From assembly GCA_049860595.1 (NCBI GenBank), contig CP187551.1: a stretch of 64,000 nucleotides of DNA; one strand, written 5' to 3'. This DNA comes from Methanocaldococcus sp. 16A. Its GTDB lineage: Archaea > AGJL01 > Methanococci > Methanococcales > Methanocaldococcaceae. The notes under the pieces are model-generated. The model saw nothing but the letters and a program-made list of their open reading frames with translations. It did no database searches and was not told the origin of the DNA. Shown piece by piece: positions 49,718 through 57,785 of the stretch. Position 1 is the stretch's first letter; the number at the start of each line of letters is the position of its first letter. The position numbers and the translations under genes are program-made.

Positions 49718-49869
49718 ATACAGAAAAGTTTAATTAAACTAAAATTTTTTTAATTTGAATTGAATTATTAGATTACCTAATAGCTTCCATTAGTTAGTTT
49801 AAGAATATATATTTTTATAGGTAACTTCCTAATTAATTGATTGTGATTTCTATTCTTGGAGGTGAATCT

Positions 49870-51843
49870 ATGTCCCCAAGAATTGGGGTATTTGTCTGTT
49901 ACTGTGGAGCAAACATTAATGGTGTTGTAGATTGTGAAGCAGTAAGAGATTTTGCTGAAAAATTAGATGGAGTCGTTGTGGCTAAGACCTATCCTTTTAT
50001 GTGTGCTGACCCAGGGCAAAACTTGATTAAAGAGGCAATAAAAGAATACAACCTCGACAGAGTCGTTGTTGCTGCATGCACACCAAAAATTCACGAACCT
50101 ACTTTTAGAAACTGTATAAAAGAAGCAGGATTATCTCCATATTATTTGGAGTTTATTAACATTAGAGAACACTGTTCGTTCGTTCACATGAATGAAAGAG
50201 AAAAGGCTACTAAAAAAGCAATGGAGTTAGTTGCTGGTGGAGTTGAGAGAGCTAAGAGATTGGAAGATGTTCCACAAAAAATTGTAGATGTTGATAAATC
50301 CTGTTTAATTATTGGAGGAGGTATTGCTGGAATTCAGGCGGCTCTTGACTTAGGAGACCAAGGTTATAAGGTATATTTAGTAGAAAAAGAGCCATCAATT
50401 GGAGGAAGGATGGCTCAACTTGCTAAGACATTCCCAACTGATGACTGTGCGCTGTGAATTTTGGCCCCAAAGATGGTTAGCGTTGCAAACCACCCCAATG
50501 TTGAGCTCATAACCTACGCCGAAGTTAAAAATGTTGAAGGATACATTGGAAACTTTGAAGTTACAATTGAGAAGAAACCAAGATATGTTGATGAAAATGT
50601 CTGTACTGGATGTGGGGCTTGTGCAGCTGTTTGTCCAATTGAAGTACCAAACGAGTTTGATTTAGGTTTAGGTACAAGAAAAGCTATATATGTCCCATTC
50701 GCACAGGCAGTTCCATTAGTTTATACAATTGATATGGACCACTGTATAAGATGTGGTTTGTGTGAAAAAGCTTGTGGTCCTGGAGCTATAAGATACGACC
50801 AAAAACCTGAAGAAATCAAATTGAAGGTTGGAACAATTATCTGTGCAGTAGGTTATGATGAATTTGACTGCACACTAAAAGAAGAGTATGGTTATGGTGT
50901 CTATGACAACGTCATAACTACATTAGAATTAGAGAGAATGATTAACCCAGCAGGACCAACAGGAGGGCATGAAATAAGACCAAGTGACGGAAAGCATCCA
51001 CACAGAGTTGTATTTATCCAGTGTGTTGGTTCAAGAGATGCTAAAGTTGGAAAGCATTACTGTTCAAGAATCTGCTGTATGTTCGCATTAAAGAATGCCC
51101 AATTACTTAAGCAGCATGACCCAAGCACTGAAGTTTATATCTGCTACATGGATATTAGGGCATTTGGTAAAGGATATGAAGAGTATTACAGAAGAGCTCA
51201 AGAGCAGTTTGGAGTTAAGTTTATTAGAGGAAGACCAGCTTGTATAATGGAAGACCCAGAGACAAAGAACTTAATCGTTAGAGTAGAAGATACATTATTA
51301 GGAGAAATTGTAGAGATTGAGGCAGATTTAGTTGTATTGTCAGCTGGTTTATCTCCAAGACCTGACAATCCAAAATTAGCTAAGATGCTTGGTTTAGAAT
51401 TAAGTCCTGATGGGTTCTTCAAAGAACTGCATCCAAAGTTAGCTCCTGTTAATACAAAAGTTGATGGTATAGCAATTGCTGGAGTAGCTCAGGGACCTAA
51501 AGATATTCCAGATACAGTAGCTCAAGCTAAAGGGGCAGCGAGTGCTGTTTCAATACCAATGGCTCAGGGGCAGTTTAAGATAGAGATGATTAGAGCTGTT
51601 GTTGATGAAGAGGTCTGTGGAGGCTGTAAGGTCTGTGCTAAGATGTGTCCATATAACGCTATAACATATGTGGAAAAAGATGGACACTTAGTAGCTCAAG
51701 TCAATGACGTTGCATGTAAGGGATGCGGTTCATGTGCAGGAGCATGTCCAAGTGGAGCAATGCAGTTGAGATACTATAGAGATGAGCAAATAATTTCATT
51801 CATTGATGGAGTGTTAGAAGCTCACCAAAAGTTAGAAGGATAA
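49870..51843 (+). CDS. hdrA: Heterodisulfide reductase subunit A, selenoprotein (657 aa, Sec196)
   Basis: The two track ORFs join in frame across TGA 50455-50457 ([14 protein letters not shown]); GGAGGTGA RBS; 3' SECIS. Confidence 0.96.
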
Positions 51844-51968
51844 AAACTTTAAGATAATGCACAAGCCCCACATCCAAATATTGAAAAGTTCTTGGAAACA
51901 TTATCTAACATTTACTAATATATGGCGTAGGTTATGAGCTCAACATTGGAAAAAGATAAACCAGATGA

Positions 51969-52002
51969 GGCACCGCCCGAAGGCATTTGCCAGGGTGGTG
52001 CT
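51969..52002 (+). promoter_or_regulatory. Archaeal SECIS element (hdrA)
   Basis: GGCACCGCCC-GAA-GGC-AUUU-GCC-A-GGGUGGUGCU: GAA/A internal loop plus 3-bp GC apical stem. Confidence 0.92.
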
Positions 52003-52097
52003 GATGGGGGGTAAGTACCCTTAACTTATTATAAATTTGATTCTCATATACTCATCAAATTGTTTAAATCAAAATTAATAACTTTGAGGGGTTAGTT

Positions 52098-52502
52098 ATG
52101 GAGCCTGTAATAATTGCTTTCTGTTGCTATCAATGAGGTTATGGGGCTGCTGACTTAGCAGGGACAAGTAGAATGCAATACCCTGCAACCGTAAGAATCG
52201 TCAGGCTCCCTTGCACCGGTAAATTTGACGTTACCTATGCTTTAAGAGCTTTCCAAAAGGGAGCCGACGGAGTTATGGTTGTAGGGTGAAAGAAAGGAGA
52301 GTGTGCTTACGAAACAGGTAACACAAGAGCTGAGGAGAGGGTTAGGTTCGTTAAAGAATTATTGGATGAATTAGGAATCGGCGGAGACAGAATTGAAATG
52401 TACTTCATGACAGCTGCTGAGGCTGACAAATTTGTCTCCGCCGTTAACGAAATGACTGAAAAACTCCAAAAACTCGGACCTAACCCTCTCAAAGCTCAAT
52501 AA
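52098..52502 (+). CDS. vhuD: F420-non-reducing hydrogenase subunit D, selenoprotein (134 aa, Sec13 and Sec64); missed by the ORF track
   Basis: MEPVIIAFCCYQ-U-GYGAADLAG...RLPCTGK...VMVVG-U-KKGECAY; TGA at 52134 and 52287; TAA at 52500. Confidence 0.95.
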
Positions 52503-52523
52503 AGCCGGAGATTAAAGGGATGA

Positions 52524-52557
52524 GTTCTCTCGGGAACCCGTCAGGGACCGAGAGAAC
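52524..52557 (+). promoter_or_regulatory. Archaeal SECIS element (vhuD)
   Basis: GUUCUCUCGG-GAA-CCC-GUCA-GGG-A-CCGAGAGAAC. Confidence 0.93.
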
Positions 52558-52626
52558 AACCGCCCCTATGTGAGGGGTTCTCCGGCTTTTGTAAAATTTA
52601 ATTTAAACTTTCTTAGGGTGATTACC

Positions 52627-53484
52627 TTGGCAGTAAAGGTGGGGATGATTCAATTATGCGGATGTTCAGGCTGTCATATTTCTTTATTAGATTTACACGA
52701 TAAGTTGTTAGAAGTTTTACCAAATTTAGAGATTGTATATGCTCCAATAGTTGCAGACCCTAAGGAGATTCCAGAGGGCATAGATGTGTTTTTAGTTGAG
52801 GGAGGAATTAGGAATGAGCACGATGAGCATTTAATTGAAGAAATTAGAGAGAAATCAAAGATTGTTATTGCATGGGGAACCTGTGCTGCTTATGGAGGAA
52901 TTCCAGGTTTAGCTAACTTATATACAAAAGAAGAACTGTTAAATACAGTATATACAACTGATTCAACTGATAATAAAGGAGAAATTCCTTCAGAAGGAAT
53001 TCCTGCTTTAGAAGAATATGTTAAGCCAATAAGCGATTTTGTAAAAGTTGATTACATAATTCCTGGATGCCCACCAACACCAAAAATGATTGCCGATGCA
53101 ATTGTTGCATTGTTAAATGGAGAAGAGCCAAAATTACCAACAAAAATTGTCTGTGATGAATGTCCAAGAAAGAAAGAAAATGTATTCCCAGAGAAGTTTA
53201 AGAGAACCTATGAAGGAAAACCAGACTCAGAAAGATGTTTATTTGAGCAAGGTTACACATGTTTAGGATTTGCTACAAGAGCTGGATGTGGAGCAAAGTG
53301 TCCTAATGCAGGGGTTCCATGTAGAGGATGCTATGGTAAGACAGATAAGTCATTAGACTTAGGAGCTAACGCAGCTAACGTATTAGCTAATGCTGGAGAA
53401 GCAGCTTTAGCAATTCCAGACAAAGTAGCTTTATTAAACAGATTCACATTGCCAGATGCTTTAATTAATAGAAAGGTAAAGTAA
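52627..53484 (+). CDS. vhuG: F420-non-reducing hydrogenase small subunit G
   Basis: CSGC, EGG, GTCA and GCPP motifs; TTG start after GGGTGA. Confidence 0.93.
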   Translation: MAVKVGMIQLCGCSGCHISLLDLHDKLLEVLPNLEIVYAPIVADPKEIPEGIDVFLVEGGIRNEHDEHLIEEIREKSKIVIAWGTCAAYGGIPGLANLYTKEELLNTVYTTDSTDNKGEIPSEGIPALEEYVKPISDFVKVDYIIPGCPPTPKMIADAIVALLNGEEPKLPTKIVCDECPRKKENVFPEKFKRTYEGKPDSERCLFEQGYTCLGFATRAGCGAKCPNAGVPCRGCYGKTDKSLDLGANAANVLANAGEAALAIPDKVALLNRFTLPDALINRKVK

Positions 53485-53525
53485 TTATAAAAAATTAAAT
53501 ATAATAATAAAATAAGGGTGAATTT

Positions 53526-54873: not shown

Positions 54874-55026
54874 ATGGCTGAAAAAAGCACAGTCAAAGTT
54901 GATGAGGTAAAGTTAAATTTAATTGAGGTAGTTTTGAGGGCTTACGACCCTTGATACTCATGTGCTGCCCATATAATAGTTAAAGATGAGAAAGGAAATA
55001 AAATTATAGAGATTATTAAAGAATAA
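54874..55026 (+). CDS. vhuU: VhuU selenopeptide (50 aa, Sec27); missed by the ORF track
   Basis: [37 protein letters not shown]...; TGA at 54952; GGTGA RBS. Confidence 0.95.
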
Positions 55027-55061
55027 GCTCACAACCGAACCCATTTGGGAGGTTGTGAGCT
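55026..55061 (+). promoter_or_regulatory. Archaeal SECIS element (vhuU)
   Basis: AGCUCACAACC-GAA-CCC-AUUU-GGG-A-GGUUGUGAGCU. Confidence 0.93.
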
Positions 55062-57749: not shown

Positions 57750-57785
57750 ATGTTGGAGGGGAACCCGTAAGGGACCCTCCAACAT
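57750..57785 (+). promoter_or_regulatory. Archaeal SECIS element (fwdB)
   Basis: AUGUUGGAGGG-GAA-CCC-GUAA-GGG-A-CCCUCCAACAU. Confidence 0.93.

Follow-up and report, generated by a model that had tools for sequence, protein, structure and literature searches.

A conserved, separable kink-turn beneath the hdrA SECIS element of Methanocaldococcus and its candidate partner L7Ae

We analyzed a 64,000-nt stretch of contig CP187551.1 from Methanocaldococcus sp. 16A (the window; all positions use whole-stretch numbering on the + strand). It carries the genes for heterodisulfide reductase subunit A (hdrA) and an flpD/mvhD-type protein (vhuD), each with in-frame TGA codons for selenocysteine (Sec). The hdrA gene is a single open frame with its TGA read as U, and a 63% identical paralog in the same genome has a cysteine (Cys) aligned with the Sec position. 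The spacer between hdrA and vhuD contains a composite RNA element, in which a kink-turn (K-turn) forms the base of a GAA/A-type selenocysteine insertion sequence (SECIS) hairpin. The element lies 118 nt past the hdrA stop codon and 90 nt ahead of vhuD. An initial annotation of the window placed the UGA ~1.5 kb upstream, in agreement with the 1,504 nt that separate the TGA from position 51961. We infer that the hairpin belongs to the hdrA 3' untranslated region (UTR) and not to the vhuD leader, because vhuD has its own SECIS 21 nt past its stop. The genes and the parts of the element are as follows.

49870..51843, +: hdrA, selenoprotein, 658 codons from ATG.
50455..50457, +: in-frame TGA (Sec) codon of hdrA, 1,504 nt upstream of 51961.
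51841-43, +: hdrA stop codon.
51961..52007, +: composite element, K-turn plus GAA/A-type SECIS hairpin, equal to Rfam RF01737 (flpD RNA) by covariance-model match, fold and covariation.
51961..51963, +: 5' strand (CCA) of the canonical (C) helix; pair counts across 24 distinct rows are listed below.
51964..51966, +: K-turn loop L1-L3, GAU; in relatives GAU, AAU, UAU, UGU or GGU.
51967..51968, +: G1b and A2b of the tandem sheared pairs, invariant in 25/25 elements and in 6/6 K-turn-only hairpins.
51969..51978, +: 5' strand of the non-canonical (NC) helix, which is the 10-bp SECIS basal helix; G51969-U52002 is the 3b.3n pair.
51979..51981, +: GAA of the SECIS GAA/A loop, with the opposite A at 51992.
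51982..51991, +: apical stem GGC/GCC and loop AUUU; 98.6% of cells paired in helix 3.
51993..52002, +: 3' strand of the NC/basal helix.
52003..52004, +: G2n and A1n of the tandem sheared pairs, inside CUGA; UGAU at 52002-52005 is invariant in 25/25.
52005..52007, +: 3' strand of the C helix, UGG.
52008..52021, +: second small hairpin abutting the C helix, found in the minimum free energy (MFE) fold and by RNAalifold in both family-level alignments, with double changes.
52098..52502, +: vhuD (flpD/mvhD-type), with two in-frame TGA (Sec) codons at 52134-36 and 52287-89.

Every base of the K-turn described in the initial annotation is borne out. The C helix CCA/UGG runs into the GAU bulge, followed by the tandem pairs G51967 opposite A52004 (G967.A004) and A51968 opposite G52003 (A968.G003), the G51969-U52002 pair and a GC-rich helix (51970-78 / 51993-52001) that leads to the GAA/A loop. 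This is the layout of a standard K-turn, with a Watson-Crick C helix 5' of a 3-nt bulge, then G and A facing A and G, and the NC helix after the G.A pairs. Its strands, GAUGA on the 5' side and CUGA on the 3' side, follow the box C / box D pattern. Above it stands a methanogen-type SECIS, defined in passages of PMC9622424 by an asymmetric GAA/A loop, a ~10-bp basal helix, two to three apical G-C pairs and a 4-8-nt loop. Specifically, the GAA/A loop is clamped by G-C pairs (CCC/GGG below, GGC/GCC above), the basal helix measures 10 bp, the apical stem GGC/GCC carries the loop AUUU, and the gene in whose UTR the hairpin lies has an in-frame UGA at a Cys/Sec site. The earlier statement that the GAA/A consensus lacks a K-turn was partly right; passages of PMC11881835 call the GAA/A loop itself kink-turn-like.

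The MFE fold recovers all three helices, a 5+2 internal loop at the K-turn site and the hairpin at 52008-52021, with a z-score of -4.1 and none of 200 shuffles folding as well. With random flanks at genome composition, a K-turn signature arises at a given hairpin base with p = 3.4e-4, which leaves ~0.002 expected among seven SECIS. Counterparts of the 52008-52021 hairpin have a covarying stem (GGGC/GCCC, GAGC/GCUC, GGAC/GUCC) and a UAUGUR-like loop in most genomes, and are missing in genus g2. An enclosing helix around the hdrA module was rejected as a conserved feature, as the best helix beat 90% of shuffles in just 5/25 loci (rows L009 and L019 were mis-anchored in this test). We also rejected a box C/D small RNA identity, which calls for C/D and C'/D' boxes around unpaired guides of 10-12 nt: despite its GAUGA and CUGA, the element encloses a closed hairpin and has no second box pair. 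The window has no Rfam C/D match.

The element is already known, both as an Rfam entry and as a described motif (2016, 2024), so the suggestion that it might be unreported does not hold. RF01737 matches the same coordinates over model positions 1-47/47 with 56.5 bits (gathering score 40, E = 4e-11), upstream of an flpD/mvhD/vhuD-type gene, and is the only Rfam match in the window. Rfam types the family as cis-regulatory. Its consensus uses another register, with the loop G paired to the 3' A, so the model expresses neither the K-turn nor the SECIS nature of the RNA. The flpD motif is listed in a table of Weinberg et al. 2010 (PMC2864571). From sequence and fold, flpD, named after the downstream gene, appears to be the hdrA 3'-UTR SECIS on a K-turn base. 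Passages of PMC11227280 give an AUGA_GA motif, [A/G]UGA_[G/A]A, for hdrA and frhD (vhuD) SECIS of Methanococcales and Methanopyrus, and the present element shares with these its GAA/A loop, a basal helix of 10 bp flanked by AUGA on the 5' side and GA on the 3' side, and the short extra stem. The same passages report the motif in all detected hdrA/frhD SECIS, whereas 2/27 hdrA SECIS lack it here; their pattern demands 22-65 nt between the GA dinucleotides. According to passages of PMC4989117, the VhuD SECIS of Methanococcales and Methanopyrus has an extra stem, an invariant AUGA and GAC/AAC. These passages tie the motif to the Lokiarchaeal and eukaryotic SECIS core, and state that these genomes lack it in their remaining SECIS; the hdrA element contradicts this. 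The hdrA SECIS is absent from the main texts of both reporter papers (PMC9622424, PMC11881835). Added here are the equation of flpD with a SECIS, a four-state census of the spacer, and the K-turn as an independently selected module.

The RF01737 model, searched in 40 Methanococci-class genomes, gave a full-length match in 25, of which 19 exceed the gathering score, and all 25 lie in the hdrA-vhuD spacer. In the alignment of Methanococcales hdrA 3' UTRs, a comparison that the initial annotation had proposed, the K-turn motif and a covarying C helix are kept in 25/36 Methanococci spacers, across both families of the class. All 25 K-turn plus SECIS elements have the U at L3, the 5' GA and the 3' UGAU. 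In the SECIS core, the AA and the opposite A are likewise invariant (25/25), and the G is found in 24/25. On the 25-row alignment, the whole K-turn structure has 88% of cells paired versus 77% in shuffles, with double changes in 12/17 pairs; none of 500 shuffles reaches any of these measures, and slid registers pair only 29-44%. Helix 2 (NC/basal) has 92% of cells paired and double changes at 7/10 pairs. The C helix is 3 bp long, a fourth pair being missing in 22/24 distinct rows, and its pairs -2 and -3 covary. The counts over 24 distinct rows are:

C-helix pair -1: A-U 23, G-U 1.
C-helix pair -2: C-G 19, A-U 3, G-U 1, unpaired 1.
C-helix pair -3: C-G 8, A-U 4, U-A 4, U-G 2, unpaired 6.

The K-turn under the hdrA SECIS is real, conserved and beyond chance. 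Two loci deserve separate mention. In the nearest relative of the window genome (G014, locus L023), the K-turn is kept, the SECIS core reads UAA/A, the apical G-C pairs are lost and hdrA retains its TGA; this hdrA SECIS may be decaying. In genome G031, a second K-turn hairpin lies ~60 nt past the SECIS in the same spacer (L022:1604-1653); its C helix has 4 bp, its loop reads UAU, the GA/GA pairs are present and the 9-bp stem lacks a GAA/A loop.

In genomes without an RF01737 match we located vhuD and read the spacers. The resulting census covers 36 assembled spacers; the remaining 4/40 genomes are incomplete (54-89%), with the locus missing or cut. Four natural states occur:

K-turn and SECIS: 25 genomes, including G014 (UAA/A core, weak apical stem).
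SECIS without K-turn: 2 genomes (G028, G035).
K-turn hairpin without GAA/A core: 6 genomes, all in the window's genus (G003, G004, G008, G009, G015, G016).
Neither element, AT-rich spacer: 3 genomes (G021-G023).

The hdrA Sec site is TGA/stop in all four states, at every locus that covers it. Thus 9/36 genomes have no hdrA SECIS core, and six of these nine retain the K-turn alone. We placed the states on a maximum-likelihood tree of HdrA and VhuD (36 rows, none dropped). The K-turn-only state takes three changes, at least two of them forced by well-supported branches, and the 'neither' and 'SECIS only' states take one change each. The SECIS core is therefore deleted in six genomes by at least two independent events, with the K-turn hairpin retained and the hdrA UGA kept. 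In G035 (locus L027), an AGAUGA lies on the 3' side of the K-turn-less SECIS stem, which is the wrong strand for a usual K-turn, and no convincing K-turn can be drawn.

In the six K-turn-only hairpins the stem measures 5-7 bp and no A run is conserved in the loop. The vhuD ribosome-binding site follows them after 22-110 nt, and their spacers are only 69-161 nt long; in most genomes the K-turn element is 90-400 nt from the vhuD start. The six hairpins have an invariant AGAUGA and GAU, and their stems diverge yet stay complementary. With the motif fixed while the stems drift, the K-turn is a separately selected module that remains under purifying selection after loss of the SECIS core. The GA-GA gap is 13-17 nt in the five hairpins measured, below the pattern range of PMC11227280, and the literature passages on these SECIS hold no mention of such hairpins. 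A Lokiarchaeal or eukaryote-like SECIS identity was rejected for them, given the 5-7-bp stems and the absence of a conserved A-rich loop. With the UGA codons conserved, hdrA's own SECIS is dispensable. At four K-turn-only loci of 6-6.5 kb, the sole SECIS that a relaxed scan finds from the hdrA UGA to vhuG is the one behind vhuD. In genomes without the hdrA core, this vhuD 3' SECIS probably replaces that of hdrA via a shared transcript; passages of PMC4989117 propose one SECIS serving two genes in Lokiarchaeota.

A strict scan of the window's genome yielded seven SECIS hairpins. Two have a K-turn or K-turn-like base, hdrA (GA/GA) and vhuD (GA/AA, 2-bp C helix), and both are preceded by GAUGA; the other five have fully paired or unrelated flanks. 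The following distances and coordinates were obtained:

hdrA SECIS, K-turn present: 1,514 nt from UGA to SECIS (basal helix at 51969).
SECIS of FwdB-type gene 1, no K-turn: 1,025 nt from UGA.
SECIS of FwdB-type gene 2, no K-turn: 1,060 nt from UGA.
SelD SECIS, no K-turn: 1,050 nt from UGA.
52517..52561, +: vhuD 3' SECIS, with a 10-bp helix, GAA/A, GAU loop, GA facing AA, and 2-bp C helix.

A long UGA distance is not specific to hdrA, because three K-turn-less SECIS span 1,025-1,060 nt. The vhuD 3' composite (52504-52586) consists of the SECIS, a small hairpin (loop UAUGUGA) and a 7-bp enclosing helix (52504-10 / 52580-86). Its SECIS base has RAU-GA before the helix and GA or AA after it in 36/36 loci (by script GA 21, AA 14; one unparsed and one mis-registered row were read by eye). 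A small hairpin follows both the hdrA and the vhuD modules, and the parallel layouts suggest that the two are paralogous. Two more canonical GAA/A SECIS in the window, at 55026-55061 and 57750-57785, have no K-turn at their base. The latter follows an FwdB-type selenoprotein gene; the former is downstream of vhuA and presumably behind vhuU, a tentative gene assignment. Orthologs of vhuD have two TGA codons in most genomes, and the second (position 64) is TGT (Cys) in L014 (G010), L018 (G029) and L040 (G015), where the first stays TGA.

Within 500 nt upstream of vhcD, the GC-rich K-turn hairpin is found in 0/13 loci; two AT-rich pattern matches upstream and one downstream look spurious. The gene next to the Cys-hdrA of this genome starts after 30 nt. 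A Cys-type locus at G000:C1:234754-240713 (-) carries vhcD, Cys-hdrA ~3.6 kb further on, and then directly an FwdB-like gene, so that it mirrors the Sec-type locus without SECIS or K-turn hairpins. We link the K-turn to the Sec-type operon because the Cys paralog loci show no such hairpin and the vhuD SECIS carries a related base at 36/36 loci.

Two PF01248 genes are present in the genome, and a third, SBP2-like paralog is absent; of the two, the one scoring best against the family model is taken to be l7ae. A hairpin in its leader (G000:C1:1347782-1347820, -), 52 nt upstream of the start and 3.8 kb beyond the window end, has a 4-bp C helix (CCAC/GUGG), a GAU loop and GA/GA, followed by a strong terminator-like hairpin and a U6 run. 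The arrangement has the look of an autoregulatory leader for L7Ae that may include an attenuator. Archaeal cells contain abundant L7Ae, which is reported to bind standard K-turns tightly. In passages of PMC6298567, published l7ae leader K-turns have a GAU bulge with G:A/A:G, and that of A. fulgidus binds L7Ae and folds only with the protein; parts of PMC6298567 and PMC5539422 describe regulation of mRNAs by L7Ae through leader K-turns. Because the hdrA motif shares GAU and GA/AG with these leaders and with the organism's own l7ae hairpin, L7Ae binding is reasonable: the hdrA K-turn resembles the likeliest target of this organism's L7Ae, making it a plausible, predicted L7Ae site in vivo. The hdrA element has in common with box C/D and l7ae leader K-turns the GAU loop, the tandem G.A/A.G pairs, GAUGA/CUGA and a terminal short C helix. 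It differs in having a closed SECIS hairpin as interior, without C'/D' boxes or a free guide; unlike the l7ae leaders, it is clear of the ribosome-binding site, and its L7Ae binding is a prediction. The literature searched, by passages and abstracts, held no L7Ae proposal for the hdrA element and no published test of its kinked geometry or of L7Ae binding to it.

We propose, with about even confidence in the whole, that the hdrA SECIS consists of two stacked modules, with an accessory K-turn occupied by L7Ae and the vhuD SECIS as a backup. The two modules are conserved, covary and are independently lost. The upper one would be the methanogen-type GAA/A SECIS proper, and the lower a box C/D-type K-turn placed exactly at the end of the 10-bp basal helix. 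L7Ae would occupy the K-turn in the cell, folding and kinking the hairpin base. The K-turn would then act as an accessory module of the Sec-type hdrA-vhuD operon, boosting or organizing expression or recoding of that mRNA, and would not be the determinant for SECIS recognition. Where the hdrA SECIS core is missing, the SECIS after vhuD would serve the hdrA UGA through a shared transcript. That the K-turn is confined to SECIS-bearing spacers, in these genomes as in distant lineages, speaks for a role related to Sec. The K-turn outlives the SECIS core and is repeatedly lost, and these two facts argue that it is neither sufficient nor necessary.

Several points weigh against this proposal. The L7Ae occupancy proposed in the initial annotation is plausible by the likeness to l7ae leaders; occupancy in the cell and any effect on recoding are both predictions. 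The C helix is short and has at most 2 bp in 7/25 loci. The K-turn is lost in 5/36 genomes that retain their hdrA and vhuD UGA codons, and its function is therefore dispensable. The pair with a recent deletion, G016 and G008, may be too young to have decayed. The Cys-operon comparison is not a clean control, as gene order differs. Finally, a conserved TATA-like box between the element and vhuD in this genus counts against the shared hdrA-vhuD transcript that we propose.

This TATA-like box (UUAUAAAUUU, then AUUCUCA, at 52028-52038) may be an internal vhuD promoter. It is clearly retained in three same-genus K-turn plus SECIS spacers (window, G005, G001) and missing from the short K-turn-only spacers. 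Both families, the two K-turn-less genomes included, conserve another box ahead of the element, at ~51943-51953; it is CAACAUUAGGGUGGUU-like in relatives, the window retaining only CAACAUUGG, and resembles the SECIS 3' strand and the Shine-Dalgarno sequence. RNAalifold for this genus pairs the 5' K-turn strand with part of this box, with zero double changes. A small open reading frame from the AUG within GAUGA was rejected, as its frame and length shift with loop length among genomes (by eye). No public run has half or more of the sampled words of positions 49800-53500; the 14 listed are Logan contigs of relatives. One RNA-library contig of a relative (X6 record 17, 269 nt) aligns to 51924-52202 (four runs, 80% likeness, DNA carry-over possible). 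Another (X6 record 15, 2,711 nt) spans hdrA and vhuD over a diverged spacer; such contigs cannot prove a single transcript or its ends. Elsewhere in the genome, a GC-rich hairpin with a GAUGA/CUGA base lies on a 27-kb contig (G000:C2:7244-7279, +), in a stretch where each of the three frames of that strand has stops. An 8-bp outer helix could form instead. The hairpin may represent a candidate K-turn RNA, and the contig may be an extrachromosomal element.

The alternative that survives best, which we nevertheless regard as doubtful, is that the K-turn is a Sec-independent post-transcriptional element. L7Ae would serve as a roadblock or processing mark that sets the stability or translation of hdrA versus vhuD, and stacking on the SECIS would be incidental. 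The persistence of the hairpin after SECIS loss in six genomes, 22-110 nt before the vhuD ribosome-binding site, fits this idea, as do the second, SECIS-less K-turn hairpin of G031 and the control of mRNAs by L7Ae through leader K-turns described in parts of PMC6298567 and PMC5539422. However, the motif was not found at the Cys-type paralog loci, most elements at 90-400 nt from the vhuD start are too distant to occlude the ribosome-binding site, and the same motif under the vhuD SECIS (36/36) and under SECIS of distant lineages suggests a Sec link.

We consider it improbable that K-turn-bound L7Ae plays the part of SBP2 in archaea and has to bend or deliver the SECIS for a UGA 1.5 kb upstream to be read as Sec, as the initial annotation proposed. 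In favour of this reading, the K-turn is canonical and conserved, it is missing at Cys paralog loci, and K-turn cores recur at vhuD, Asgard and eukaryotic SECIS (passages of PMC4989117 and PMC11227280). The premise of that proposal, that no archaeal SBP2 equivalent is established, stands: passages of PMC11881835 and PMC4989117 state that the archaeal SECIS-binding factor is unknown, and the latter report SBP2 in no archaeon and point to a protein not yet known or to part of the ribosome, for instance L30. The delivery role itself fares poorly. Five of the seven SECIS in this genome lack a K-turn at their base, three of them acting over 1.0-1.06 kb; 2/36 genomes pair a Sec-hdrA with a K-turn-less SECIS and 3/36 have neither element; and the K-turn-less fruA and sps SECIS recode in vivo in an M. 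maripaludis reporter (passages of PMC11881835). The modules are also separable, as the K-turn outlives the SECIS core in 6/36 genomes.

A protein-free role seems similarly unlikely. The K-turn would be pure RNA architecture that kinks the SECIS arm against the adjacent small hairpin into a compact fold. The second hairpin does abut the C helix and covary, and an arm-plus-hairpin layout of the same kind, surrounded by an enclosing helix, is seen in the vhuD module. Against this, the second hairpin is missing in genus g2, the hdrA enclosing helix is unsupported (fewer than 10% of shuffles match it in only 5/25 loci), and an unoccupied site is unlikely given the abundance of L7Ae and its reported tight binding of K-turns. 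The l7ae leader K-turns that share GAU and GA/AG need protein to fold, according to passages of PMC6298567.

We likewise give little credence to a further possibility, in which the archaeal SECIS is bipartite and the K-turn is its ancestral half, of eukaryotic type, read by a constitutive L7Ae-family protein (L7Ae or L30e) as a forerunner of SBP2. By themselves or jointly with the vhuD SECIS of that mRNA, the bare K-turn hairpins of the six genomes without a GAA/A core would then still aid recoding of the hdrA UGA. If true, living intermediates of the archaeal-to-eukaryotic SECIS transition would exist inside one cultivable methanogen genus. The hdrA element shares with eukaryotic and Lokiarchaeal SECIS (passages of PMC4989117) the AUGA...GA quartet at the base of the main helix, the 3'-UTR location and the kilobase distance; it differs in its GAA/A internal loop and 4-nt apical loop AUUU, in place of an A-rich apical loop on a helix of at least 9 bp. 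We rejected an identity with that SECIS type, as the AUGA_GA core is present but the helix is interrupted by GAA/A and an SBP2-like protein is missing.

Least probable is that the six K-turn-only hairpins are functionless, decaying relics of a K-turn merely tolerated under the SECIS: the G016/G008 hairpin keeps the lower stem of its K-turn plus SECIS relatives, consistent with a recent deletion, but the older group (G003, G004, G009, G015) has stems that diverged with compensating changes around an invariant AGAUGA and GAU, and the motif is retained across both families of the class.

The proposed two-module hdrA SECIS has several implications. The Rfam flpD entry is best understood as a SECIS that stands on a K-turn. 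The presence of a canonical K-turn beneath two SECIS bears on how archaea connect a 3'-UTR SECIS to the ribosome: the K-turn cannot be a general recognition determinant, yet it is selected on its own. The four states would imply that one SECIS serves both hdrA and vhuD in Methanococcales, an arrangement that, in passages of PMC4989117, was earlier proposed only for Lokiarchaeota. Together, the spacers with both elements, SECIS only, K-turn only and neither provide a ready-made, natural mutant series.

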